12,000 nt of DNA from the IMG/VR virus record IMGVR_UViG_2660238061_000007. One strand, 5' to 3'. The notes beneath the pieces are model-generated. The model was not told where the DNA came from, searched no databases, and worked only from the letters and a program-made list of their open reading frames with translations. The translations under genes were made by a program, and so were the position numbers. The DNA is from a virus (taxonomy: Duplodnaviria > Heunggongvirae > Uroviricota > Caudoviricetes). Position 1 is the first letter of the stretch. Every line of letters starts with the position of its first letter. Of the stretch, positions 100 to 11,736 are shown piece after piece.

Positions 100-261
100 T
101 ACTTTTGCGCCTCCCAGCCGGACCGGCGCTGCGGCGTAATACGCGGCAATTTCACCAATCCAGCCGGTCAGCCTTTCCCGCTGCTCCTGACTGTTCGCGC
201 CCAGAATAAAATCCATCGCTGACTGCGTATCCAGCTCACTCTCAATGGTGGCGGCATACAT
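100..261 (-). CDS. Hypothetical protein, N-terminal 54 codons only (truncated by gap)
   Basis: Minus-strand ORF starting with ATG at 261..259 (MYAATIESELDTQSAMDFILGANSQEQRERLTGWIGEIAAYYAAAPVRLGGAKV), running into the N-gap; no family recognised. Confidence 0.3.
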
Positions 262-342
262 CGCCTTTATGAAAAGACAGGAAAAAATAAAATTTAAAAA
301 CAGTACATTACGAATGCTCAGACCTATCGTTTAAAGGAGTCG

Positions 343-363
343 CAATACACACTGCAATACACG
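343..363. repeat. Terminal direct repeats GCAATACACA x2 (candidate integrase arm-type or att-associated sites, left island end)
   Basis: gcaatacacactgcaatacac here is 20/21 identical and co-oriented with gcaatacacattgcaatacac at 11035-11055 beside the integrase gene. Confidence 0.5.
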
Positions 364-699
364 ATTATTTATAAGATGAGCGGCATCCGTCATAAAGCTG
401 GTGGATGCTTTTTCTATGCATATATGCACAGTTTTAGTGGGCGTTAATGTCGATATAGGGATCCCCATATCGAGATTGGATACCTGGCTTTTTTCCGGTT
501 AACCTTTAATCAGGCTGGTGGGCTTTACCTGTTTTGTATGAGTGGTCATCATGACCATGTCATAACAAAAACCCCATATTCGTGGTTTTTCTGTGTCGGG
601 CTATTCTGTCGTTGCTGTGCTGATTTGGCTGGTGGGCTGAATCATCATTACGGCGATGCAGCTATGTAGACGTTCCGGCCTCCTCAAATTGAGGATTGT

Positions 700-830
700 G
701 GAAGAATCAATGGGTTAGTCTTACTTTCCCGACATCCCCCAATGGGGGTTTTCGAAACAATCAATAGCTTAGGCTTACTTCCCCGATTTCCTGCATTGCA
801 GGTTTTCGAAATAATCAATGGGTTAGGCCA
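700..830. repeat. About 2.5 copies of a ~54-bp tandem repeat, each copy containing a short GC-stem palindrome
   Basis: Unit GGTTTTCGAAA(C/T)AATCAAT(A/G)G(C/G)TTAGGC at 746-774 and 800-828, partial copy at 700-719; spacers TTACTT(T)CCCGA... are also related; palindromes CCCCCAATGGGGG (735-747), CCTGCATTGCAGG (789-801), GTGCAATTTTGCAC (835-848). Confidence 0.7.
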
Positions 831-1076
831 TCGTGCAATTTTGCACTTTGCCAGCCAGCGCAATGTCGCGTTATCAGTCCTCAGATGTGAGGGATGTAGC
901 CAGCTTTTCCCCCAGTGGGGGATATCCAGCACCGACGGCTTAACTGTGCGTGCCAGCACAAGGTAGCCTTGAACTACTTACTGCATCCCATCTTACAGGC
1001 CGTGCCTTCCTGCTTAACTTTTTGCAATGCAACAAGTCAGCCAGCGCAATTTTGCGTTATCGGGAATATCAGCAAG

Positions 1077-1358
1077 TTACCGCCGCAATCGTTCCGGCTT
1101 CTTCCACTGGTAAGTATTTTTCGCGCTCTCCCTCCGTTGTTGAGAACGGCGACGATATGCCAGCAACTCAAGGACTCTTGTTCGTATGTTGCGCATATCC
1201 ACGCCGTTAAGCTCAATACCGTCACGGCGCATCACCTCAGCCACTACACGCACATAATTATCTGCGGTCACGCTGTCCGGCTGCGTGGCCTGTTCGTCAT
1301 GCTGCTTGCTGATTCCACAAGCACGGCGGATTAATCGCAGTATTTCGGATTCAGTCAT
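1077..1358 (-). CDS. Hypothetical small basic protein (93 aa) downstream of terS
   Basis: Protein-like composition (MTESEILRLIRRACGISKQHDEQ...), same strand and operon position as terS; competing plus-strand ORFs are low-complexity. No confident family. Confidence 0.45.
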   Translation of the reverse strand: MTESEILRLIRRACGISKQHDEQATQPDSVTADNYVRVVAEVMRRDGIELNGVDMRNIRTRVLELLAYRRRSQQRRESAKNTYQWKKPERLRR

Positions 1359-1440
1359 AGCGTACTACGTTACTTATCTTTATTCGGCTGCAACTTATCC
1401 GGTACGTTTCCGGCAGTTTCCATCAGATAATCGGACAGCA

Positions 1441-1911
1441 TCAGCGGTATGTTTTCGTCAAGTTTTGCGCATGCGTTACAGGCTCTGATAACTTCTTTTT
1501 CAGTCCATCCAGCATAGACGGCTTCATGTCGGGAAACTTCCTTGTCATGGCAAGCGGCAGGCTGTCCATGATTGAAGAAATCTGACTCGCCAATTTTGAA
1601 AGCACGTATATACAAAACGCTGTATCAATAACGTCGCCGCGTTCGCGCTCGTTTTTAAGCTCCTGCGCCTCTGCCTGTGCTGTCAGCAATCTGATCCTGA
1701 CTCGTAGGAGTTCATCATCATCAATCTCGCCTTTGTCGTCTGTAATCTGGTTAATTGCATTGCTAACCCGATTGTCTATTACGCTGGCAACATCATAAAA
1801 CGCCTCGCGGCCTTTACGTTCAACGGGAGTCACTCCCCACTTGTCGAACGCTGTCGCACTTACACGGCAGCTTTGCGCCATGTTTTTTTTGTTCATCAGG
1901 TGCGATTTCAT
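1441..1911 (-). CDS. Small terminase subunit, lambda Nu1-like
   Basis: Translation aligns by eye with lambda Nu1: LLTAQAEAQELKNERERGDVIDTAFCIYVLSKLASQISSIMDSLPLAMTRKFPDM versus lambda LTRAQADAQELKNARDSAEVVETAFCTFVLSRIAGEIASILDGLPLSVQRRFPEL; N-terminal MNKK motif also shared. Start is ambiguous (ATG at 1923, 1911 or 1896); 1911 has the best SD (GGGGA). Lies about 130 bp downstream of a cosN. Confidence 0.9.
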   Translation of the reverse strand: MKSHLMNKKNMAQSCRVSATAFDKWGVTPVERKGREAFYDVASVIDNRVSNAINQITDDKGEIDDDELLRVRIRLLTAQAEAQELKNERERGDVIDTAFCIYVLSKLASQISSIMDSLPLAMTRKFPDMKPSMLDGLKKKLSEPVTHAQNLTKTYR

Positions 1912-2022
1912 CAATATCCCCACTTAAGTAATGTTTCAGGTTGGTGTATTGGCTTTATCTTTTCCTTTTTATTCATAGAGATAGAGCGAACAACAAAACC
2001 ACCACCAGCACCCGAAAAAGGC

Positions 2023-2061
2023 TCATAAATAGCGAAAACCCGCGAGGTCGCCGCCCCGTAG
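2023..2061 (-). other. cos: Lambda-type cos site (cosN with 12-nt cohesive end GGGCGGCGACCT)
   Basis: Minus strand reads CTACGGGGCGGCGACCTCGCGGGTTTTCGCTATTTATGA, matching the remembered lambda cos junction over about 37 nt; positioned immediately upstream of the Nu1-like gene as in lambda. Confidence 0.85.
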
Positions 2062-2112
2062 CCTACCGGATCGCCGGAAAGGACCCGCCAGCCAGAACGG
2101 GCCCTAATTTCA

Positions 2113-2496
2113 TCAACCAATCAACTTATAGCGACCATCCCGTGCATTGCGACGTACACGCTCAATCTTGAGGCATAGCGCCGCATCTGGCTTTTTTGGG
2201 ACAGGTACGCGGCAATATTCAGAAGATCGAGGAATATTGTTTATCCAGTCGATCACTTCACTTAAATACCAGGCCTTACGCCCTTCCGTAACCTGCACAC
2301 GCTCCGGGAACTCTCCACTAGCCTCAAGGTTTAGCAATGTGCGACGGCTAAGGGTAGTAAGTTCCATCACCTGATTCATATCAACAAGGCGTTCACTTAA
2401 ACGCATTTTGTCAGCAATAGCCTTTAATTCCTCTACTGCTGGATCCGGATACATCATTTCGGCAATTGGCTTAAGGTCATTGTAATGATTCTGCAT
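2113..2496 (-). CDS. AlpA/Xis-family HTH protein with N-terminal extension (127 aa)
   Basis: Central segment MELTTLSRRTLLNLEASGEFPERVQVTEGRKAWYLSEVIDWI fits the AlpA-type HTH pattern; strong SD (AGGGGGA) 4-5 nt upstream of the ATG, 11 nt after the gpD-like stop. Confidence 0.7.
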   Translation of the reverse strand: MQNHYNDLKPIAEMMYPDPAVEELKAIADKMRLSERLVDMNQVMELTTLSRRTLLNLEASGEFPERVQVTEGRKAWYLSEVIDWINNIPRSSEYCRVPVPKKPDAALCLKIERVRRNARDGRYKLIG

Positions 2497-2507
2497 TGTA
2501 TCCCCCT

Positions 2508-2849
2508 TTACACACGAGCCAGCGGCTGAACAGAAATACCTGAGCCAACAAACGCGGCAACCTTTGCCGACAGTTCTTTTACAGACTCAGGCCAGTTCAG
2601 AGCATCAACATTTAAAACACCTGTCTTATAAACCTGTGCCTGTGTTTTTTTCGCTGTGTCGATTTGTACAGCGGAAACATAAACCGCTTTACCTACGCTC
2701 GAACCATCCCATACCACCAGTGCACCTGTTGCATCTTCCTGCATCAGTGGCGTAAATGCAGGAATTACCCCTTTATTAGCTGAAAATATCCCCAGCGTAG
2801 TCACCAGTGCTTCAGTGCCAGCCATGAGTTCAGTGTAATGAGTAGCCAT
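2508..2849 (-). CDS. Head decoration protein, lambda gpD-like
   Basis: Shared motifs with lambda D by eye: TPLM, VVWDG (lambda VAWDG), YKTG (YKSG), NWPE (LWPE), AAFVGSGISV (TAFAGTAISIV); similar length (113 aa); SD GGGGGAG upstream. Confidence 0.8.
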   Translation of the reverse strand: MATHYTELMAGTEALVTTLGIFSANKGVIPAFTPLMQEDATGALVVWDGSSVGKAVYVSAVQIDTAKKTQAQVYKTGVLNVDALNWPESVKELSAKVAAFVGSGISVQPLARV

Positions 2850-2858
2850 TGCTCCCCC

Positions 2859-3905
2859 TTAGCCAATGCGAACGGTAACAAAACGATTGATGCGGGCCGG
2901 TATTGGCTGTGGTGCTGAATGTGTCTGCACATATTCAATAGCCGGATCACCAGGCACAATATAGTTTTTCGGTGCAAGTTCGGCTTTAGTCAGCCCCATT
3001 CGGATTAGCTCCGGATCCTGAATACCGCCATAGGCGACAATCCCCTGAAGAGCCGTATTGCCAAGCACCATCAAATCAGGATCAAGGAAATGTTTTTCTG
3101 TTCCGTCCTCGTCGGTATAACGCCCGCTGTAAACAACAATCGCAACATCGCCCATATACCCTTTAAAACTCACCGAATCACCAAGGTCTTTAAGGGCCGT
3201 TTCCAGTTCGGAATTAGAACCACGACGGGTATCCAAAGCCTCTTTTATCGCTCTGAATGAACGGTATTTCTTCCATACATTACCACCCATAATGATGATA
3301 TTAGTGACGCCCTCACTAAATTCTGCGTAGCTCTCAATATCATCATTTGGATCAAAAGTTTCTTTATCCTTACCTGACCACTCAGTACCGCCAGACTGAG
3401 TGATGATATTTTGTGGTTTTATATTCCAGTCCAGCTCATAACGTTCAATACCATCGCCCTCAATGATATTTTTCCCCGTTGTGATTGCCTGAACAGCAAG
3501 CCATTCAATACGTGCACGAATAGCTTTAGCCTGATTTACAATCGCCTGTTTAACTTTAATATTACGTGCCCCAAAAGCATTGTATTGCTCAGGTGATACA
3601 CCAGCAGGGCGCACAGCTAACTTATTTGGATCAATGCTGCTTTTCGGCTTCATATAGCCTGGACGAATTGTTTTTGATTCGTACCCTTCGTCACGTGAAA
3701 CTTTACTACCCACCATAGGAGAACAAAACGCTGCAATTGGGATATTTGGATCGTCGATTGTATCAAGAATAATATCGCGCGATTCAAACATTACCGAGCG
3801 AGTAAAAAACAAACTGGTAAACAACGCATTTAGTTGTTTTTGTACATCTACAGCATTAACCACCTGTACAAGCTGAGTAGGCGAATATAAATCAACCATA
3901 CGCAT
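2859..3905 (-). CDS. Major capsid protein, lambda gpE-like
   Basis: Strong similarity by eye to lambda E: NIITQSGGTEWSGKDKETFDPNDDIESYA versus NITQSGGTEWSKRDKSTYDPTDDIEAYA; DTRRGSNSELETALKDLG and GDVAIVVYSG and MVLGNT conserved. Start set at the internal Met (MRMVDLYSPTQL, like lambda MSMYTTAQLL) with SD AAGAGG; the ORF-track extension to 4112 is judged non-coding. Alternative start 3899. Confidence 0.9.
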   Translation of the reverse strand: MRMVDLYSPTQLVQVVNAVDVQKQLNALFTSLFFTRSVMFESRDIILDTIDDPNIPIAAFCSPMVGSKVSRDEGYESKTIRPGYMKPKSSIDPNKLAVRPAGVSPEQYNAFGARNIKVKQAIVNQAKAIRARIEWLAVQAITTGKNIIEGDGIERYELDWNIKPQNIITQSGGTEWSGKDKETFDPNDDIESYAEFSEGVTNIIIMGGNVWKKYRSFRAIKEALDTRRGSNSELETALKDLGDSVSFKGYMGDVAIVVYSGRYTDEDGTEKHFLDPDLMVLGNTALQGIVAYGGIQDPELIRMGLTKAELAPKNYIVPGDPAIEYVQTHSAPQPIPARINRFVTVRIG

Positions 3906-4073
3906 CCTCTTTGCATTCATTAAAAATAATTGTGGATATATGCTACCACCGATATTTGTCATGCGAACACATGCAACCGAGTGCAATGTTGTATAAAGTT
4001 TTGGGGTGACAACTTCAGTGCGGACAATTAGTGTTAATATCTTCACTCCCTTTGGTCGGGATTTATGTAGCAT

Positions 4074-4107
4074 GCCGGAAAATTTATTTTTTCCGGCCTT
4101 TTTTATT
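4074..4107. terminator. Hairpin with T-run (intrinsic-terminator-like) between ssb and the capsid gene
   Basis: GCCGGAAAA (4074-4082), loop TTTATT, TTTTCCGGC (4089-4097), followed by CTTTTTTATT on the plus strand; the minus-strand reading lacks a U-run, so the strand of action is uncertain. Confidence 0.4.
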
Positions 4108-4115
4108 GGCAATAT

Positions 4116-4565
4116 TTAAAACGGGATATCATCTCCCCATTGCTCATTATCTCCCACTGGTGGCTGGCTTCCTTGCTGATCTGCCTGTTGTTTTGCTCTG
4201 TTCAGTTCGTCAGTAGCCTGCCCCTGTTGGCCTTTTTTGCCGCCCGGTCGCGCCGTTCGCGCACTGATTACGCTGTCTGCGATAACCTGCCAGCCCCGCC
4301 GCGTTTCGCCGTTCTGGCCTGTCCACTGGCTTACCTGCATGTTACCCGCCACGCTCACCAGTTCGCCTTTGTGGTGTTTTGCCAGTGCGTCGGCCTGTCT
4401 GCCAAACGCCAGGACGGATAACCACATCGTCGCCGTTCCGTCATCTGCCTGGCTGCACGGCAGGGGAACCGCCATACTCGCCATCGCCATTTGTGTCCCT
4501 TTGCTGGTGGTCTTTAACTGCGGGTCAGCCACCAGCCGCCCGTAAGCCGCTATCTGTGCTGTCAT
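4116..4565 (-). CDS. ssb: Single-stranded DNA-binding protein (SSB)
   Basis: C-terminal acidic tip ...WGDDIPF as in E. coli SSB (DDDIPF); OB-fold region resembles SSB; Gly/Gln-rich linker. Start overlaps the upstream ORF stop (ATGA). Confidence 0.85.
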   Translation of the reverse strand: MTAQIAAYGRLVADPQLKTTSKGTQMAMASMAVPLPCSQADDGTATMWLSVLAFGRQADALAKHHKGELVSVAGNMQVSQWTGQNGETRRGWQVIADSVISARTARPGGKKGQQGQATDELNRAKQQADQQGSQPPVGDNEQWGDDIPF

Positions 4566-4876
4566 GCTGTCTGCTCTCCGGTTTTAACATTGATGGTTGT
4601 CACCTGTTCCGCTTCGGCAATCTCCCGTTCTGTCAGCGTGGCAAAGTTTGCCGCTGCTGTGGTCATGAATGCGCTTATCAGGTCGGGATGTTCCTTCGCG
4701 TATCCTGCCCGTGTGTGGTGGTCTATCGCTTTGATTGCCACCTTTAAGGAAAGCTCTGTCATGTCTAACGCTTTATATTTTGCCTGTGTTCTGTCTCTGC
4801 GAATTTTGGTCATTTGTCGCCCCTGATTCATGTTTTCGGCTGGCATGTTTATTAAGTGATTTTTATGTATGCGCAT
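4562..4876 (-). CDS. Hypothetical protein (up to 104 aa), translationally coupled to ssb
   Basis: ORF with ATGA overlap to the ssb start; no recognised family; start uncertain (internal Mets at residues 11, 16, 22). Confidence 0.45.
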   Translation of the reverse strand: MRIHKNHLINMPAENMNQGRQMTKIRRDRTQAKYKALDMTELSLKVAIKAIDHHTRAGYAKEHPDLISAFMTTAAANFATLTEREIAEAEQVTTINVKTGEQTA

Positions 4877-4925
4877 TTATTTTCACCCCCCCCTCGTTTA
4901 AAAAGTTTTTAGTTGTGCCTCCCCC

Positions 4926-5145
4926 CCTCTACCCATCTACCCGAATGCTCATCATGTCAGTAATGGCGCGGCTTTCAGCGGGTAGATAGCTTTTTGACTC
5001 CTCTACCTGCCGTCTACCCTGCTACCTGAAACTGATAAAATCAGGTAGAAGAGGTAGAGAGCTTTTATTAGCCTTCTACCTAGCCCTATACCCACTTATC
5101 ATGTTGAATAATATGCGTTTATTTTGTTCAGGTAGATGGGGTAGA
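4926..5145. repeat. ori: Iteron-type replication origin (about 11 copies of GGTAGA/TCTACC, often in tandem pairs)
   Basis: ctctacccatctaccc (4926-4942), ggtagata (4981), ctctacctgccgtctaccc (5001-5019), ggtagaagaggtagaga (5043-5059), ttctacct (5076), ggtagatggggtagatgg (5132-5149); flanked by AT-rich and poly-C tracts; immediately 3' of the primase gene. Confidence 0.7.
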
Positions 5146-5161
5146 TGGCTTTTACAAAAAA

Positions 5162-6916
5162 TTATAAAAACGCGTCGCAATCGTCTGTTGTAATTGCGTT
5201 GGTCTGCGTTACTCCCTTAACTTTTCGCGTAATATATTCATGCCCGTAAACTTTCGCCGCTGGCTTCATGGCCTTGCTGAACTCAGCCACGTTTAGCGGT
5301 TTGCTCCTGCCCGCGTATGCCATAAACGCCAGATAGACGCGGTAAAGGCTGTTCCTGGTCGTGTACTTCACTGAATCACCACCGCCACCCATCATCAGGC
5401 CGCGCGCTTCCTCCAGAAAATTCAGGAACTGGCAAAACTCAATAACCGGATCCGTCTGTTGCTTTATTGCCAGTGCTTCATCACCGTCACGCTGTTCCAG
5501 TAGTAAAGCCCGTGCCTTCTCAGGGTCGGTAAAGTTCGCCAGCAATCGGCGGATAATAACGGGGATTTCAGCCGCAATCTTTTCCGGTAGCTCCCTGTCT
5601 TTTTCGGCCTCACTGACGATATTGTCGAAACGGAAAATCACGCGACGACGTGCCACACCTCCGGCCCGTTCGGTGAATATCATCGGGTTGTTGTTGGTCG
5701 CCAGCACCACCGCCCTGATTACCGCCGTGAAACGCTTTTCATATTTCGGGTTAATTTCCACGGGGTCGCCGCCTGTGATTTTCTTGATGCCCGTTCCTTC
5801 GCCTGTATATTTCGGCTGGTCAGCCAGGACGATAAGACGACTCCCGACAACCTGCGCACGTCCACCAGCATCATCAAGCGATGTCATTTCAGCGCTTACC
5901 GTGTTCTGTTTCCCTGCCAGAAGGCTGGCTATGTGTGTGAATGTACTTTTACCGCTCCCGCCGTCTCCGGTGGCCTCAATAAACATCTGCCAGTCGTACC
6001 GGTTCGCCATAATCATGTACAGCGCGGCACATATACGCATCATCTTGCGCGGGTCTTTTCCGGCTGCGTGCTCAAGCCATTTATGAAAGTTTGGCGCGTT
6101 ATCGCGGATGTTCTCCCCTGGTGCTGGTGGCGTGTACTCAATGCCGTTGTGCGTGGTGATCCAGTTCTCCGGCGTGTGCGGGGAAAATTCCCCCGTTTTC
6201 AGGTCAAGCGCACCATTGGCGAACGGCAGCAAATCGCCAGACGGCTCGCCCATTGGTTCGGCAATAACTTTTAACGCTTCCACGGCGTTATTGATTACGC
6301 GCTTGCTGAAAGTGGCCCTGTGCTCTGAATAGATCGCCACCATTTCGCGGCTAAGTTCCATTGTGCTGACCGGACACCATACCCCGCCGCGCCATACGTG
6401 AACGATTTCACTTTCAGGATGTACGCAAACGCCATCAAAGCGATCGGCAAGCAACTGCGCGCGCTCACTGTCCGCCATCTGCGAAAGTTGCGCCTTTTGC
6501 TTTACCGGAAGCTCAATGACCAGACCATCAGAAAGATTCTGGCGTTCACGGGCCAGATATTCGCGCCAGTTCTGCACCTCCTGGCCGTGCATACCCTCAG
6601 GATAAAAATTTGCATCCTGTACGCCTGCTGCCGCCAGCTTCTGACCAATCGCCTTTATCATTACAGGCGCAAGATATCCGGCCCTGTATATGCGTGCTGA
6701 TTTTCGGCCTTCCGGCACAATTTGCAGATTATCCAGTTCGGATAGCTGCTGCTCCCCAAGCCACACAGGAGGCTCATTATCTCCGGCCATACGCGCATCA
6801 TGTTCCTGCCATTGTTTCGCGTGTGCCCAGGCATCACTACCCGCAAAAATAATGACTTCTGTTCCTTTGTGTTTTATGCCGCGTGACTGCTGTTTTACGT
6901 TCGGTGCCAGTTTCAT
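5162..6916 (-). CDS. P4-family primase/helicase (SF3 helicase-like P-loop NTPase), replication initiator
   Basis: 584-aa ORF with Walker A GDGGSGKST and a D5/P4 primase C-terminal-like region; SD GAGGT 6 nt upstream; followed by the iteron ori, the typical pri-ori layout of PICI/P4-like satellites. Confidence 0.85.
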   Translation of the reverse strand: MKLAPNVKQQSRGIKHKGTEVIIFAGSDAWAHAKQWQEHDARMAGDNEPPVWLGEQQLSELDNLQIVPEGRKSARIYRAGYLAPVMIKAIGQKLAAAGVQDANFYPEGMHGQEVQNWREYLARERQNLSDGLVIELPVKQKAQLSQMADSERAQLLADRFDGVCVHPESEIVHVWRGGVWCPVSTMELSREMVAIYSEHRATFSKRVINNAVEALKVIAEPMGEPSGDLLPFANGALDLKTGEFSPHTPENWITTHNGIEYTPPAPGENIRDNAPNFHKWLEHAAGKDPRKMMRICAALYMIMANRYDWQMFIEATGDGGSGKSTFTHIASLLAGKQNTVSAEMTSLDDAGGRAQVVGSRLIVLADQPKYTGEGTGIKKITGGDPVEINPKYEKRFTAVIRAVVLATNNNPMIFTERAGGVARRRVIFRFDNIVSEAEKDRELPEKIAAEIPVIIRRLLANFTDPEKARALLLEQRDGDEALAIKQQTDPVIEFCQFLNFLEEARGLMMGGGGDSVKYTTRNSLYRVYLAFMAYAGRSKPLNVAEFSKAMKPAAKVYGHEYITRKVKGVTQTNAITTDDCDAFL

Positions 6917-7212
6917 TTTTTACCTCTGAATCCGTTAATCATGGTTTTCATTTTCTGGATATTTCCCCACGCTTTTTCCCTGCTGATGGGCTTACTGCGG
7001 GGTGCGGCATATACCAGGGGAAAATCACGCCGGAACTGATAAACAGGCATCACGCAGTCATAGCTATACCCCTCACGGCGGTAAGTGATGCGCCGTTCTG
7101 CCACGCCTTTAATCGTTACCGTGCCGCCGTATTTATCGCGGTAAATATCGCCGTTCATAAATTCAGGTCGAGCGGGGCCGCTGGCAATAAAGCCAGAATT
7201 TTTCATTTCCAT
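6913..7212 (-). CDS. Hypothetical protein (99 aa), stop overlaps the primase start (ATGA)
   Basis: Translational coupling to the primase; SD-like GAGGAA upstream; no family recognised. Confidence 0.55.
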   Translation of the reverse strand: MEMKNSGFIASGPARPEFMNGDIYRDKYGGTVTIKGVAERRITYRREGYSYDCVMPVYQFRRDFPLVYAAPRSKPISREKAWGNIQKMKTMINGFRGKK

Positions 7213-7229
7213 ATTATTTATTCCTCGAC

Positions 7230-7451
7230 TTAACTCGACTTATTTGATAGCAGGGCACTATTTATTGCGTCATTGAGTTTTTCTGCTGATTCATCAATAA
7301 GTGACAACAGGCCATAAGCAATATTTGCATCTTCATTGTCATTTATGCAATCAAGCCACATATTTAATATTGCTTTTGCTGAATTATTTAAAGTTAATGA
7401 ACTTTCTGCACATGCTAACAATTTAAAAAAGACTTCCCGTTCTGTATTCAT
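7230..7451 (-). CDS. Hypothetical small acidic protein (73 aa) in an AT-rich block
   Basis: SD GGGGGA 4-5 nt upstream; stop of the upstream ORF directly abuts the ATG (TAAATG); local composition visibly more AT-rich than neighbours. Confidence 0.5.
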   Translation of the reverse strand: MNTEREVFFKLLACAESSLTLNNSAKAILNMWLDCINDNEDANIAYGLLSLIDESAEKLNDAINSALLSNKSS

Positions 7452-7643
7452 TTAATCCCCCACCAGCTTACTTTCTTCCTCAATCAAAAAACTAGCGACA
7501 CTTCCCGAAAGACGCGCCAGTAGGCTCGCCAGTGCGGATATATCAGCATCTGTAATTTTGTTCGGGTATACCTCAAGAAGGCGGCAAATAATTTCTGTCT
7601 GGTGCGCACGTTCAGCGGCTTCGTGTAATGTAATTTCCTGCAT
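7452..7643 (-). CDS. Hypothetical small acidic protein (63 aa)
   Basis: SD AGAGGTG upstream; start overlaps the upstream stop (TAATG); part of the coupled operon. Confidence 0.5.
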   Translation of the reverse strand: MQEITLHEAAERAHQTEIICRLLEVYPNKITDADISALASLLARLSGSVASFLIEEESKLVGD

Positions 7644-7828
7644 TAATGCACCTCTTTTAATTCATACACTGCTGAAATAATGACTTGTGATAAGCCATAT
7701 TCTGATGATTCGCTTCTCACCGCAGCAATAGCCGTCTGAACATTAACAGCCTTCACATTCTGAGCGATACCAATTGTGTGGCCTATTGGGTTAACAGCTC
7801 GGGCAAATACACGGAAGGTTTTAAGCAT
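7643..7828 (-). CDS. Hypothetical small protein (61 aa), first gene of the operon ending in the primase
   Basis: SD GGGAG 7 nt upstream of the ATG; preceded by a roughly 380-bp regulatory intergenic region. Confidence 0.5.
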   Translation of the reverse strand: MLKTFRVFARAVNPIGHTIGIAQNVKAVNVQTAIAAVRSESSEYGLSQVIISAVYELKEVH

Positions 7829-8047
7829 GACTCACTCCCTGGCGGATTTTTGCAGCGAATACAGCAACACAACCGGACGGGCAACGGCTACGCGCTTCGC
7901 GTTCCGTCCAGGCGGTTACGTGGATGATTTGAGATTCTCCGGCACTCAGTGCCAGAAAACGCCACACAAAGGCCGTTTGTGTGTGTACAAGGTGTGGTAT
8001 ATGATTTACAGCAACCATAACGGCTCCTAGTTTACGTTGTTGGTTAG

Positions 8048-8090
8048 ACGCCCCGTATGTGTTCCCAGCACTGCGGGGCGTTGCTCTTTG
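8048..8090 (+). terminator. GC-stem hairpin with downstream T-rich tract (terminator-like or regulatory structure)
   Basis: ACGCCCCG (8048-8055), 18-nt loop, CGGGGCGT (8074-8081), then TGCTCTTTGTATTTC. Confidence 0.3.
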
Positions 8091-8109
8091 TATTTCAACA
8101 ATCCTTTCG

Positions 8110-8188
8110 GTGTGTTTCATGTTATGAGCGCATGAAACACACGTCAAGGCTTTTTGTATTTCTTTTTTTGTGTATACTGAAACACACC
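8110..8188. promoter_or_regulatory. Operator/promoter region: perfect 12-bp inverted repeat plus a third half-site overlapping a -10-like TATACT
   Basis: GTGTGTTTCATG (8110-8121), 9-bp spacer, CATGAAACACAC (8131-8142); TGAAACACAC again at 8179-8188 next to TATACT (8173-8178); SD AGGAG 8 nt before the ATG at 8209. Confidence 0.6.
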
Positions 8189-8208
8189 GATGATTAGGAG
8201 TTTCAGAA

Positions 8209-8514
8209 ATGGCAACGGCTAACAAAAACGCAAAATCACAACTGACAACTGTCAGAGTCCCACTAGATGTTATGCAAGGGATGGAATCCGTTAAGCTGGA
8301 CGGTGAAAGCAATGCCGGATTTATCGTAACCGCCATGCGCGGAGAAATAGCCCGCCGCCAAGCAGAAGGCAGCGGAGAAAATCCCCTTGTGTCGTCACTG
8401 GATGCCCTGGCTAAGGTCGAACAAATCGGCATCAAAGCAGCCGAGGAGATCGGGCAACTCGTCACCGTCGCGCGTGAAGAACTCCAGCGACGCAAGGTCA
8501 AAGAGCATGAATAG
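8209..8514 (+). CDS. Putative ribbon-helix-helix DNA-binding protein (101 aa), candidate island regulator
   Basis: Excellent SD (AGGAG, 8-nt spacing); N-terminal LTTVRVPLDVMQGMESVKLDGESNAGFIVTAMRGEIARR fits a beta-strand/helix/helix RHH pattern; transcribed divergently from the small-gene/primase operon, beside palindromic operators. Confidence 0.55.
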   Translation: MATANKNAKSQLTTVRVPLDVMQGMESVKLDGESNAGFIVTAMRGEIARRQAEGSGENPLVSSLDALAKVEQIGIKAAEEIGQLVTVAREELQRRKVKEHE

Positions 8515-8571
8515 CCAATATCAGCGCCATAGTTTGAGGAACGCAGGCGCATTGCTTTACAGGACAGCACC

Positions 8572-8751
8572 ATGAGCGACACAGAATCAACCAAAACACC
8601 ATCACCAACTCGTAAGAGACGACGCAAAAATATAGCGCATGAACATGAATCAGAAAGATTCGCACCTTGTTCGTTTGCTCTTGAGAAATTCCTTAAAGAG
8701 CACAGGAAAAAGCTCTCGTTGCAAACCTTGGAACGAACCAAATCTGACTGA
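8572..8751 (+). CDS. Hypothetical small basic protein (59 aa)
   Basis: ORF below the 60-aa track cutoff, found by manual translation (MSDTESTKTPSPTRKRRRKNIAHEHE...); AGGA 7 nt upstream; followed by an intrinsic terminator. Confidence 0.35.
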   Translation: MSDTESTKTPSPTRKRRRKNIAHEHESERFAPCSFALEKFLKEHRKKLSLQTLERTKSD

Positions 8752-8817
8752 TCACATTGCCCACCAGCCGCAAATGTGGCATTGTTGGTGATGCTTTTGT
8801 TTTCCCTTGTTCCCACT

Positions 8818-8847
8818 GGCGACCCTTTTGCGGTCGCCTTTGTTTTG
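8818..8847 (+). terminator. Rho-independent terminator of the plus-strand two-gene unit
   Basis: GGCGACC (8818-8824), loop CTTTTGC, GGTCGCC (8832-8838), then TTTGTTTTG. Confidence 0.6.
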
Positions 8848-9426
8848 TCACTGAATGCGGTTACCAAAGTAAAACTCAGGCTGATATTCACGTATCAGCG
8901 TTTTTTCTTCTTCCTCCAGCTCACGCTTTTTGCGCTTACATGCCTGTAGCTCCCTCCCCTTCTCGCTGGCACTTATTTGATATTGCTCTTTACGGCGGGA
9001 AAAATCCTGTAATGCACCCCACGGGATACCATAAGTCCCCGTTTTTCTGATACCTGGTATCACATTTCTGAATACCCAGTTACTGAAACGATGAGCAAAT
9101 GTGCCAGGCGTCGTTGCTTTGCGGCTGCGGGCTATTAGTTTGTAGAAACCTGACTCAGAGATAATTCTCATATTCTGATTTCCTCCTGGGGTGTAAGTTA
9201 AATTTACTCCCTTTTCATCATCATCAAGCATCTGCAACGCCGTACGCGAATTGGTTAGTTCCAGCGCAGCACAAACATCTTTTGCAACAAACCACGGATC
9301 GCCGTTCAGATACACCACACGAACGTTCACACTATCAAAGCGCAGAACGACGAGATCACGAATATCGCAGAATTTTTTCACTGGACGAGCGTACCCCTTG
9401 CCCGTCACGGCAATATTTTTATTCAT
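8848..9426 (-). CDS. Bro-N domain protein (putative antirepressor-like)
   Basis: Bro-N hallmark segments VRVVYLNGDPWFVAKDVCAALEL, GGNQNMRIISESGFYKLIARSRK and FSNWVFRNVIPGIRKTGTY. Confidence 0.8.
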   Translation of the reverse strand: MNKNIAVTGKGYARPVKKFCDIRDLVVLRFDSVNVRVVYLNGDPWFVAKDVCAALELTNSRTALQMLDDDEKGVNLTYTPGGNQNMRIISESGFYKLIARSRKATTPGTFAHRFSNWVFRNVIPGIRKTGTYGIPWGALQDFSRRKEQYQISASEKGRELQACKRKKRELEEEEKTLIREYQPEFYFGNRIQ

Positions 9427-9444
9427 CGCGTTTTTACCTTATAG

Positions 9445-9470
9445 ACAAAAAACCCCTCGTGATGAGGGGC
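9445..9470 (-). terminator. Rho-independent terminator after alpA
   Basis: Minus strand reads GCCCCTC ATCAC GAGGGG TTTTTTGT, located between the alpA stop (9483) and the Bro-N start (9426). Confidence 0.55.
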
Positions 9471-9482
9471 ATTATTTACTGG

Positions 9483-9740
9483 TTATTGCTGTTTTGTTTT
9501 TCCAGGTTTCCATCCAGGATGCCACTCACCACGGATCCATGCCTGAACCTCTGAAAGTCGATACCCTGCAGCACGTTCACCGATCTTGATACGTCGCGGG
9601 AATTTACCTGCCTGCTCCATTTTCCAGCGTGTTGAGTTTGCCAGCGTGGTAAGTGCTATGCACTCTTTTTCACGAATGAACCGATCAATGTCCTTCATTG
9701 TGCGCAAATCGTTTTCATCAACAAGAGAATAAATTGCCAT
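9483..9740 (-). CDS. alpA: AlpA-family transcriptional regulator/excisionase-like HTH protein
   Basis: 85-aa protein with AlpA-type HTH (ALTTLANSTRWKMEQAGKFPRRIKIGERAAGYRLSEVQAWI); start 1 nt after the integrase stop, the typical int-alpA pairing of P4-like/PICI elements. Confidence 0.8.
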   Translation of the reverse strand: MAIYSLVDENDLRTMKDIDRFIREKECIALTTLANSTRWKMEQAGKFPRRIKIGERAAGYRLSEVQAWIRGEWHPGWKPGKTKQQ

Positions 9741-9741
9741 A

Positions 9742-10983
9742 TCACACCACCTCTTTATTAAGCTCGATAACGTTGTTGTTAAATCCTGCTATCGTATTAA
9801 GGTAATTAACCCACATATTAAGCACCTCAAGTTTTTTCTTTATATGCCTGCTTTTATTGTAAACACCAGCAACCCCTTTCACTTTATGACCTAAAAGAAG
9901 TTCGACAATATAAGGATCCGCCCCCATATCATTAAGCGTAGTGGAAAATGTGCGCCTGAAATCATGTATGCACCACAAGCCATTAGTATCATGACCAAGA
10001 CGCCTGCATATTCTGTTTGCAGCCCCTGTTATTGTCGCCCTTTGCAAAGCACAACCGACAACATAACCGCGATTTTTTGTTTCTGCGTAAAGATTAACGA
10101 TCCATTGTTTTATTCCGTCAGGAACAGGCCTTACTATAGCCTCCTTGTTTTTGCTGTGCTCTTTTGGGACTGTCCATACCCAGTTTTTTAAATCCCATTC
10201 GTCCCAGGTGGATAGCCTCGCCTCCTGCTGTCGGCAACCAAACACCAGGCAGATAACCATTATTCTTCGGTTATATATTGATGACAGAGTTAGCAAATTA
10301 TTACCGTAAGCATAAGACCATACATCAGCGGTTTCATTGATATTAAGAACGCGATCCCTTATACCGGATGAGCGCCCGACATAACTTACGTTAATATCTC
10401 CAAAGGGATCGCACGCGATGTATTGCCTGACGCGACAAAAACGCAACGCCTGTTTGATATCAAGAAAAATTGCACCAGACATAACAGGCGCATTTTTTTT
10501 GATCCTGTCAAAGACGGTAAGCCATGTGTGTAATTTGCACTGTTCTATAGCCATATCACCGATATAGGGGAAGATATGCTTTTCAAATCGTTTTATTAAA
10601 TATTCATGCTCTTTTCTGGCTGTTGTGGCGTGATTGTCGTACCAGTAAAACAGCGCATCCCTTACGGTCACTGGTTGCATAGTTTTTTCGGCAGCAAGTT
10701 TTATTTGCCTGCGGGGGTCCAGATTTTCAGCCAGCCATTCACGGCACTGATCACGCATGCGCCTGGCCGTTGCAAGAGACATGTCAGGATAGCGACCAAG
10801 TGTAAGCCATACCGGAGGGGATTCCCTGCCACCAAGACGATAGTAAAAAACAAAGCTGATCCCCCCAACCATGCTTACACGCACAGACAACCCGCGCCCA
10901 TCCGCTATTGTTTTTTGTTTGTCCTGCCGTTTTCCGACAAGACTCTTTAACAGTTTGTCACTGAGTTTGTTTTCAATAGCCAT
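9742..10983 (-). CDS. int: P4-type tyrosine integrase
   Basis: 413 aa; P4-family N-terminus (DKLLKSLVGKRQDKQKTIADGRGLSVRV...LGRYPDMSLATARRMRD) and catalytic-region motifs (HDFRRTF, LLGHK, Y near C-terminus); SD GAGGG upstream. Confidence 0.95.
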   Translation of the reverse strand: MAIENKLSDKLLKSLVGKRQDKQKTIADGRGLSVRVSMVGGISFVFYYRLGGRESPPVWLTLGRYPDMSLATARRMRDQCREWLAENLDPRRQIKLAAEKTMQPVTVRDALFYWYDNHATTARKEHEYLIKRFEKHIFPYIGDMAIEQCKLHTWLTVFDRIKKNAPVMSGAIFLDIKQALRFCRVRQYIACDPFGDINVSYVGRSSGIRDRVLNINETADVWSYAYGNNLLTLSSIYNRRIMVICLVFGCRQQEARLSTWDEWDLKNWVWTVPKEHSKNKEAIVRPVPDGIKQWIVNLYAETKNRGYVVGCALQRATITGAANRICRRLGHDTNGLWCIHDFRRTFSTTLNDMGADPYIVELLLGHKVKGVAGVYNKSRHIKKKLEVLNMWVNYLNTIAGFNNNVIELNKEVV

Positions 10984-11003
10984 TAAAAGCCCTCAAGAGA
11001 TTT

Positions 11004-11056
11004 GCAATACACACCCATCCCGATCGCCAATTTGCAATACACATTGCAATACACAA
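11004..11056. repeat. Three copies of TTGCAATACACA beside the int promoter (candidate integrase arm-type or att-associated sites, right island end)
   Basis: gatttgcaatacacacc (11004-11020) and gcaatacacattgcaatacac (11035-11055), co-oriented with the copies at 343-363. Confidence 0.5.
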
Positions 11057-11245
11057 AACCGCGAAAAACTGGAAGGGTGATGAACGGTCATCAAAAGCAT
11101 GGAAAACGACATTCCAGACGCAGCAAGGGTTTCAGTGGAGTTGGCGAACGATGCGGGCAACTACGGTGAGATGATAGACATAAATCGCCTTCACAATGGC
11201 GCTCTGCAGCTGCGTGTTCTGCAGCGTGTCGAGCATCTTCATCTG

Positions 11246-11255
11246 NNNNNNNNNN
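11246..11255. other. Assembly gap (N10)
   Basis: Run of 10 N. Confidence 0.9.
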
Positions 11256-11309
11256 ATTGTAATGACAACGTTTCGCGGCTATTCTTGTATTGTTTGGATG
11301 CAAGAATGG

Positions 11310-11360
11310 CCCCCGTGGTGTTGTCAGGTGCATACCTGCAACGTGCGGGGGTTTTCTCTC
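11310..11360 (+). terminator. GC-rich stem-loop followed by a T-run (terminator-like)
   Basis: CCCCCG...CAGGT GCAT ACCTG...CGGGGG followed by TTTTCTCTC. Confidence 0.4.
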
Positions 11361-11618
11361 TCCAGCAACCAATGCCACCAGGGATTAAGCCCCCGCAACA
11401 TTGCGCCTCACCGGAATCCTTCCGGCTTGACGCTGATTCTACGACTGTTTTTCTGTTCCGGAATCCGTCTCATCTTCACTCTGTGCTGCGCATTCCGCAG
11501 AATATTATCCGCTTGCAACCGTTGCATTTTTCTTACGAAAAAGGCCGCAGAGTTTCACCCCTGCGGCCTGGTCCGGGCGCAAATTGCCATTACGGCAGCC
11601 TGACGCCCGCATGACACG

Positions 11619-11726
11619 TTACTTCCGCTTATTCAGCCAGTTCACGATCATACTGGCAAGAATGCCAGCAATGACCGGAGCCGCTAAATCATGCCAGAAG
11701 GCCATGCCCAGTTCTGCGAGCGTCAT
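11619..11726 (-). CDS. ldr: Ldr-family type I toxin peptide (35 aa)
   Basis: Translation MTLAELGMAFWHDLAAPVIAGILASMIVNWLNKRK closely resembles remembered E. coli Ldr peptides (LdrD-like). The start codon abuts the N-gap, so the 5' leader and antisense Rdl region are not visible. Confidence 0.65.
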   Translation of the reverse strand: MTLAELGMAFWHDLAAPVIAGILASMIVNWLNKRK

Positions 11727-11736
11727 NNNNNNNNNN
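11727..11736. other. Assembly gap (N10)
   Basis: Run of 10 N; the FII-like reading frame does not continue across it. Confidence 0.9.

Follow-up and report, generated by a model that had tools for sequence, protein, structure and literature searches.

Small genes ahead of the primase in an enterobacterial satellite: a likely pre-replication operon that includes an RgdR/DUF4222 gene

In Escherichia coli O157 Sakai, the prophage-like element Sp7 (O-island 51) carries in ECs1577-ECs1582 an Icd-like gene, three further small genes, a DUF4222 gene and a replication gene, in that order. The DUF4222 gene, ECs1581, lies immediately upstream of the island primase gene with an ATGA overlap and encodes RgdR, a protein of 99 aa with a basic isoelectric point (pI) of ~10, which switches on LEE1 and type III secretion, acts as a repressor of motility and shows non-specific DNA binding (Flockhart et al., 2012, PMC3378721); RgdR/DUF4222 is a published family (PMC3378721, PMC6092414). 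Other E. coli phage-inducible chromosomal islands (PICIs), of the EcCICFT073 type, have equivalent operons (PMC6092414), and in the satellite P4 the left (early) operon (epsilon, orf151, cnr, alpha) likewise places small open reading frames (ORFs) ahead of a D5/P4-family primase-helicase gene. The small genes found between the Bro and replication zones of helper-embedded PICIs are not discussed in the description of that class (Tommasini, Mageeney and Williams, 2023, PMC10111431). The subject of the present text is a chain of such genes, which leads into the primase-helicase gene within a stretch of 12,000 nucleotides (the window) of the virus record IMGVR_UViG_2660238061_000007 and keeps the order of Sp7, with coupled junctions alike.

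A preliminary description, made from the letters of the window, had suggested that four of these genes could be an unknown cargo set. The feature is real, but the locus is mostly ordinary: its gene order is that of the standard enterobacterial PICI pre-replication operon, as in Sp7, and its last small protein belongs to the RgdR/DUF4222 family already described. We consider it likely that the four ORFs, together with an Icd-like gene that precedes them, constitute a conserved early (pre-replication) operon of an enterobacterial PICI, which here is helper-embedded in a lambdoid portal gene.

The gene chain and its conserved order

The chain and its surroundings consist of the following features.

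8119-8147, minus strand: candidate sigma-70-like promoter of the leftward operon, TTGACG-17-TAACAT (consensus scan, 9/12 matches)
7821-8018, minus strand: Icd-like ORF of 65 aa, first gene of the operon (NCBIfam NF033153 phage_ICD_like, E = 1.2e-17; RefSeq WP_001390072.1)
7643-7828, minus strand: p61, 61 aa, ATG start (family A, phrog_3672)
7452-7643, minus strand: p63, 63 aa, ATG start (family B, phrog_1478)
7230-7451, minus strand: p73, 73 aa, ATG start (family C, phrog_2196/5796)
6913-7212, minus strand: p99, 99 aa, ATG start (RgdR-family DUF4222, phrog_285)
5162-6916, minus strand: D5/P4-type primase-helicase of 584 aa, the replication initiator (Pfam D5_N, DUF5906 and Pox_D5; TIGR01613; phrog_864, E = 2e-175)

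The four ORFs of 61, 63, 73 and 99 aa exist exactly as they had been described, and their tight coupling, their individual Shine-Dalgarno (SD) sequences and their entry into the primase gene were all borne out: p61 and p63 share TAATG (1-nt overlap), p63 and p73 abut directly, a 17-nt gap separates p73 from p99, p99 overlaps the primase gene by 4 nt (ATGA), and a purine-rich SD is found 5-12 nt upstream of every start. To read this as a small-protein operon running into the primase of a satellite was structurally correct. The extent given to it, four genes, was right as far as it went and has to be widened by a fifth coupled gene, the Icd-like ORF, and by the candidate promoter before it. The Icd-like ORF, which the mechanical ORF list conceals within a 356-aa ORF, has its own AGGAG SD and overlaps the start of p61 by 8 nt, and in a RefSeq locus of 99.9% identity its product is annotated as “host cell division inhibitor Icd-like protein”. 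In the real sequence, five ORFs of 60 aa or more form one coupled chain, against chains of 2 at most in 200 shuffles of the region, and from the Icd-like gene through to where the primase gene ends the terminator-like sites of the minus strand fall only inside ORFs. Crude pN/pS ratios against diverged homologues lie between 0.30 and 0.41 for Icd-like, p61, p63 and p99, which places these genes under purifying selection; for the family of p73 the ratio is 0.83 with pS saturated, a divergence too great for it to be meaningful.

An operon 99.9% identical to this one is present in E. coli genomes, where it is annotated as DUF4222, three hypothetical genes, Icd-like and primase. The relationship with Sp7 is more distant and uneven: ECs1577-ECs1581 are 97, 97, 73, 35 and 72% identical to Icd-like, p61, p63, p73 and p99, respectively, the p73 allele of the window being the more AT-rich of the two, and DUF4222 is followed here by the gene of a D5/DUF5906 primase, in Sp7 by that of a DUF927 primase.

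Synteny across related islands, a check that the preliminary description had proposed, was surveyed in six E. coli loci with annotation and in 80 from IMG/VR that a DUF4222 profile had retrieved, and the upstream arrays were scored by reference-labelled counting of families. Of these loci, 88 extend far enough downstream; in 87 of them a replication gene directly follows DUF4222, in 83 by way of a 4-nt overlap, and this gene encodes a D5-type primase (74), a RepA-family helicase (11) or a DUF927 primase (2). Among 58 distinct upstream arrays, Icd-like is found in 56, C in 46, B in 29 and A in 25, and the further families F, E and X in 15, 14 and 5; 54 of 56 distinct arrays conform to the collinear order Icd-(A/X)-B-E-F-C-DUF4222. 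In each of the six E. coli loci compared, a family C gene immediately precedes DUF4222. Some E. coli PICIs have E, F or X in place of A and B, or lack A and B. By hhalign, families A, B, C, E, F, X, Icd-like and DUF4222 are unrelated to each other and show no relationship to epsilon, Cnr, ORF151, the cI ORF or ORF88 of P4; three top matches were discarded as artefacts of over-extended ORFs.

Taken together, these observations fit a pre-replication operon in which, most likely, transcription would start at the leftward promoter (8147-8119) and proceed via Icd-like, p61, p63, p73 and p99 into the primase-helicase gene. The overlapping or abutting stop and start codons would couple translation, so that the small proteins would be made together with the initiator.

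The DUF4222 protein p99 and its link to the initiator

It had been stated that none of the four proteins belongs to a recognised family. This does not hold for p99, which matches Pfam DUF4222 (PF13973) over residues 16-67 with 81.3 bits (cut-off 27; E = 3.7e-23), and all four match families of the PHROGs (3672, 1478, 2196 and 285); it stands for p61, p63 and p73 in the sense that they are functionally uncharacterised. The 72% identity between p99 and RgdR extends, gapless, over the full length, with a near-identical core (residues 21-64) and differences among the N- and C-terminal residues. Residues 20-22 of p99 are NGD where RgdR has RGD. Among the 120 closest homologues NGD is the commonest variant (53 NGD, 12 RGD), which makes RGD a trait of enterohaemorrhagic E. 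coli (EHEC) alleles and not of the DUF4222 family. The predicted architecture of p99 is a disordered N-terminus followed by a Tudor/SH3-like beta-barrel and a basic C-terminal helix. A Foldseek comparison of the p99 model with viral structures gave no match at E <= 0.001, and the Tudor-like domains that interact with RNA polymerase (UvrD/PcrA C-terminal domain, CarD/CdnL RID, NusG/Spt5 KOW) are counted among the closest known systems.

A DUF4222 profile search of 1.84 billion proteins returned 76 representative clusters, and the distant ones that were looked up have named members from Escherichia, Salmonella and Serratia; Shigella is the named source of a close homologue. Three long multi-repeat matches to the profile were rejected as spurious, being aRib or InlB-B repeat proteins. 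When genome contigs were scanned with p99, two loci only were obtained, in Shigella and E. albertii. The profile search also recovered P0191, a protein of 179 aa in which an N-terminal DUF4222 is joined to a primase-helicase zinc ribbon, either as a genuine fusion or through a frameshift across the ATGA junction.

The position of p99 has suggested two different kinds of role. The first, which we regard as possible but rather improbable, would make p99, perhaps with p73, a factor dedicated to replication, as an accessory or in the control of copy number, with a direct action on the initiator or the origin like that of Cnr on P4 alpha. The near-invariable adjacency to the initiator gene, with its 4-nt overlap, speaks for it, as do the union of both domains in P0191, the binding of DNA by RgdR (PMC3378721) and the presence of a likely iteron origin just beyond the primase. 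Nevertheless, P4 Cnr is a DUF5375 protein, to which hhalign shows no relation, and the lone fusion is possibly that frameshift; RgdR strongly affects host promoters without PICI induction (PMC3378721); and an identical DUF4222 protein, WP_000770163.1, is found upstream of both a RepA helicase and a D5 primase, which argues against a specific protein partner.

The second kind of role is the one that we prefer. The coupling of DUF4222 to any initiator type, and the identical protein ahead of two of them, lead us to infer that p99 would have an initiator-independent, generic core role at the start of the satellite cycle, for example as a DNA- or RNA-polymerase-associated co-factor, in which case the virulence effects of RgdR in EHEC would be a side effect. 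A bolder proposal, distinctly unlikely in our judgement, is that DUF4222 is a CarD- or UvrD-CTD-like (C-terminal domain) binder of RNA polymerase, made in fixed proportion to the initiator, and that the small-gene array is a toolbox of inhibitors for host or helper takeover. If this were true, an RNA-polymerase-binding DUF4222 made by every enterobacterial PICI would reprogramme transcription at the start of the satellite cycle, which would also account for the effect of RgdR on the LEE1 and flagellar promoters in EHEC.

Several points weigh against the reading of a conserved pre-replication operon. No experiment links its proteins to PICI replication or induction, and in the published literature RgdR figures as an accessory regulator of virulence; p99 has asparagine at residue 20, and the ECs1581 construct R20C20N (read as asparagine-20) lowered type III secretion (PMC3378721). 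The promoter is a 9/12 match to the consensus, and promoter-like sites in the region number 2 against a mean of 3.6 in shuffled sequence. The survey is biased to close relatives of p99 (the best 80 of 236 IMG/VR matches). Family C is missing from 12 of the 58 arrays, and A and B are each missing from roughly half, so that p61, p63 and p73 are each non-essential to the architecture. The translational coupling of DUF4222 to the initiator in nearly every locus, whichever of the three types follows, suggests a core satellite function over an accessory virulence role.

The small proteins p61, p63 and p73

Judged by the arrays compared, p61, p63 and p73 belong to a limited set of small genes that keep a collinear order and can each be dispensed with, and all three fall in PHROGs (3672, 1478 and 2196) of unknown function. 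The pI values are 9.4 for p61, 4.66 for p63, 4.21 for p73 and 10.1 for p99, in agreement with the earlier remark that the proteins of 63 and 73 aa are acidic; each of these two has 11 acidic and 5 basic residues, and composition alone is what has been compared with DNA mimics such as Ocr and ArdA. The first protein, p61, is 97% identical to ECs1578 and has a confident compact fold in the best AlphaFold2 model, a predicted beta-beta-alpha-beta arrangement shared at low Z (4-5) with p56, T7 Gp2, Dmd and AcrIE2. For p63 (phrog_1478, E = 2.5e-34; 73% identical to ECs1579) the sequence suggests that the protein is probably a helical hairpin, and p73 (phrog_2196, E = 1e-28) is 35% identical to ECs1580. 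A text search of the literature found no functional work on ECs1578-1580.

For p61, p63 and p73, searches of Pfam, NCBIfam and PADLOC gave chance-level matches only (Pfam: none for p61 and p63, sub-threshold for p73). With p99 included, there was no match in PADLOC-DB at E <= 0.1 and nothing significant in a sequence search of solved structures. A tblastn search of 50,697 phage genomes left p61, p73 and p99 without a match; p63 was the sole one of the four to find relatives, 59% identical and located in the early-left operon of Klebsiella temperate phages. In one of these, KPP5665-2 (L090 4001-4189), the p63 homologue lies between the repressor and the excisionase/integrase. A word-indexed homologue search with p61 and p73 returned only sequences at least 89% identical, missing the known relatives of 35-70% from the fetched loci, and its result is therefore not read as orphan status of these two proteins.

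The AT-richness of the 73-aa gene, with a GC fraction of 0.32 against about 0.41-0.53 in the neighbouring genes, was correctly noticed, and had been taken as a sign of separate acquisition. All 24 distinct family C alleles recovered lie at 0.32-0.41, against 0.48-0.55 in the anchor genes, and the family fills the slot before DUF4222 in 46 of the 58 arrays; the AT-rich block is a family trait and not evidence of separate arrival.

The preliminary description further held that this position, between the regulatory switch and the replication genes, typically houses interference or anti-defence cargo. According to this explanation, which we judge unlikely, the small proteins would be helper-interference, helper-sensing or anti-defence cargo (DNA mimics or inhibitors, for instance), modularly acquired ahead of the replication genes. 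The small size and acidity of p63 and p73 are in its favour, together with the variable presence of A, B, E, F and X between Icd-like and DUF4222 and the lower GC of the small genes relative to the anchor genes. So are the place of family B in the early-left operon of Klebsiella phages, the usual site of host-takeover genes, and the resemblance, at the low Z noted above, of the predicted p61 fold to small phage inhibitors. There is, in addition, the precedent of P4, where epsilon, annotated as the helper derepression protein, belongs to an operon upstream of the primase. On the opposite side, the order is collinear and not cassette-like, with family C and DUF4222 near-constant, and the AT-richness belongs to the whole of family C and not to one allele. 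Neither defence nor anti-defence homology was found, PADLOC giving no match, and for p61, p63 and p73 significant Pfam matches and relatives of solved structure are lacking in the searches mentioned. Families A, B, C and DUF4222 have no detectable homology to epsilon, ORF151 or Cnr (best hhalign probability 11.8%). The accessory/immune region of PICIs, moreover, has been mapped downstream of pri and not upstream (PMC11364771), and the capsid-forming PICI (cf-PICI) EcCIEDL933 leaves helper phage reproduction unreduced (bioRxiv 10.1101/2022.09.08.507074). EcCIEDL933 would be the equivalent, in EDL933, of Sakai Sp7 and, since Sp7 has this operon, probably has it as well.

Within a conserved pre-replication operon, p61, p63 and p73 may be non-enzymatic modulators of host or helper functions that bind proteins or nucleic acids.

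With regard to P4, the alignment with the best probability pairs the DUF4222 core with the N-terminus of ORF151 (L002 7440-7895; E = 0.0025), which is too weak for homology; ORF151 lies upstream of cnr and alpha, a position comparable to that of DUF4222.

The regulatory region, the island and the meaning of the operon

The operon likely begins in a regulatory switch, as the arrangement of sequence elements suggests, that comprises the candidate promoter, a set of repeats and a divergent gene.

8107-8190, no strand assigned: operator-like motif TGAAACACAC(CGA), three copies bracketing the -35/-10 elements (repeat search and direct reading)
8209-8514, plus strand: divergent YlcI/YnfO-family gene, 101 aa (NCBIfam NF041551, E = 1.6e-17; phrog_6522; same annotation in CFSAN029787)

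The Icd-like start lies ~100 nt downstream of the candidate promoter, which on its other side faces the YlcI/YnfO-family gene, whose product is a candidate regulator of the switch. Two of the TGAAACACAC(CGA) copies form a perfect 13-nt inverted repeat (8107-8119 and 8178-8190, 100% complementary), and the operator-like region also contains a direct repeat (8133-8142 and 8178-8187). These TGAAACACACCGA repeats probably serve as an operator to which the YlcI/YnfO-family protein or AlpA would bind.

On the minus strand, a terminator-like hairpin with a U-rich run after it is found at 7963-7983, within the 5' portion of the Icd-like ORF, and the leader has a strong GC hairpin at 8047-8080. Both recall the translation-dependent read-through described for P4 eta/kil, but the fold z-score is only -1.9. 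In other E. coli PICIs, extra Icd-like/Ash-family pseudogenes, often truncated, lie between alpA and the functional Icd-like gene (L006 5143-5735, L007 4792-5799, L008 5394-5873), which suggests a repeated turnover of the immunity/Bro zone.

Hairpins of this kind, inside the Icd-like ORF, are one reason to ask if some of the ORFs are not genes at all, their conservation being that of an RNA or DNA element such as an immunity RNA or a leader (P1 c4/icd or P4 CI). The Icd-like ORFs of P1 and P4 are indeed tied to antisense-RNA immunity (PMC10111431), and the 97% identity of Icd-like and p61 to their Sakai equivalents is unusually high beside the 35-73% of their neighbours. We consider this very unlikely. 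Despite the Icd-like ORF, the Rfam scan at E <= 1 found no C4/isrK-type RNA in the window and no RNA family of any kind within the operon, and the fold z-score quoted above is modest. For Icd-like and family A, pN/pS values of 0.39-0.41 at a pS of up to 0.85-0.88 indicate constraint at the protein level; every ORF has an SD and an ATG start, and p61 has the confident compact fold already mentioned.

The favoured pre-replication operon belongs to an island whose other main features are the following.

9742-10983, minus strand: integrase gene (annotation of the near-identical E. coli CFSAN029787 locus, L001)
9483-9740, minus strand: AlpA-type helix-turn-helix (HTH) gene, 85 aa (annotation of the same locus)
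4932-5154, no strand assigned: iteron cluster, the likely replication origin (direct repeats GGGTAGATAGCTTTT x3 and inverted copies)

The sequence contiguous with the island is that of window 101-11245 only. Three runs of exactly 10 N (90-99, 11246-11255 and 11727-11736) identify the window as a scaffold, so that the sequence outside the gaps is unrelated to the island and comes from elsewhere in the genome. The genes of the window encode an integrase, an AlpA-type HTH protein, a Bro-N protein, the products of the operon, the primase, a protein that binds single-stranded DNA (SSB; PF00436, E = 6e-16), an E-family major capsid protein, a decoration protein, an HTH protein and TerS. The integrase gene reads inward, with the AlpA-type regulator at the same end of the island, and the iteron cluster just downstream of the primase gene agrees with the placement of origins in PICIs (PMC6092414).

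Window 101-11245 is 98.9% identical to the CFSAN029787 locus, with both junctions covered. There, the two halves of a lambdoid portal gene (pseudogenes; L001 1715-2497 and 13381-14214) lie on either side of the island, and remnants of the same gene are found in the window at 101-296 and 11180-11245. With a size of ~10.9 kb, within the PICI range of about 10-15 kb, the island is, on this sequence evidence, a helper-embedded PICI inside the portal gene of a lambdoid prophage. It resembles the published helper-embedded PICIs, which are inserted in late genes (PMC10111431), in its length of ~11 kb and in its zones (int and alpA, Bro-N, replication, late genes); the model element of that study, 11capE, is located in a capsid gene, whereas the present island is located in the portal gene. 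Such an insertion leaves the helper unable to make portal protein until the satellite is excised.

Of capsid and packaging proteins, the island has a major capsid protein of the E family, a decoration protein and a small terminase of its own (window 1441-4112), and family matches and annotation of the window proteins revealed no portal, protease or large terminase among its own genes, which places it between the classical PICIs and the capsid-forming ones. Beyond the N gap that is its only link to the island, window 11256-11726 contains a chromosomal ldr/rdlD type I toxin-antitoxin locus (rdlD Rfam match at 11292-11357, plus strand, 81.7 bits), in DNA 100% identical to chromosomes of the E. 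coli B/BL21 lineage.

The main value of these findings is one of correction: instead of unusual cargo, the locus holds the standard run of genes that leads into replication in E. coli PICIs, and among them is the published virulence regulator RgdR. The collinear, partly dispensable small-gene families appear to be largely confined to satellites, and they provide a short and defined list for deletion analysis.

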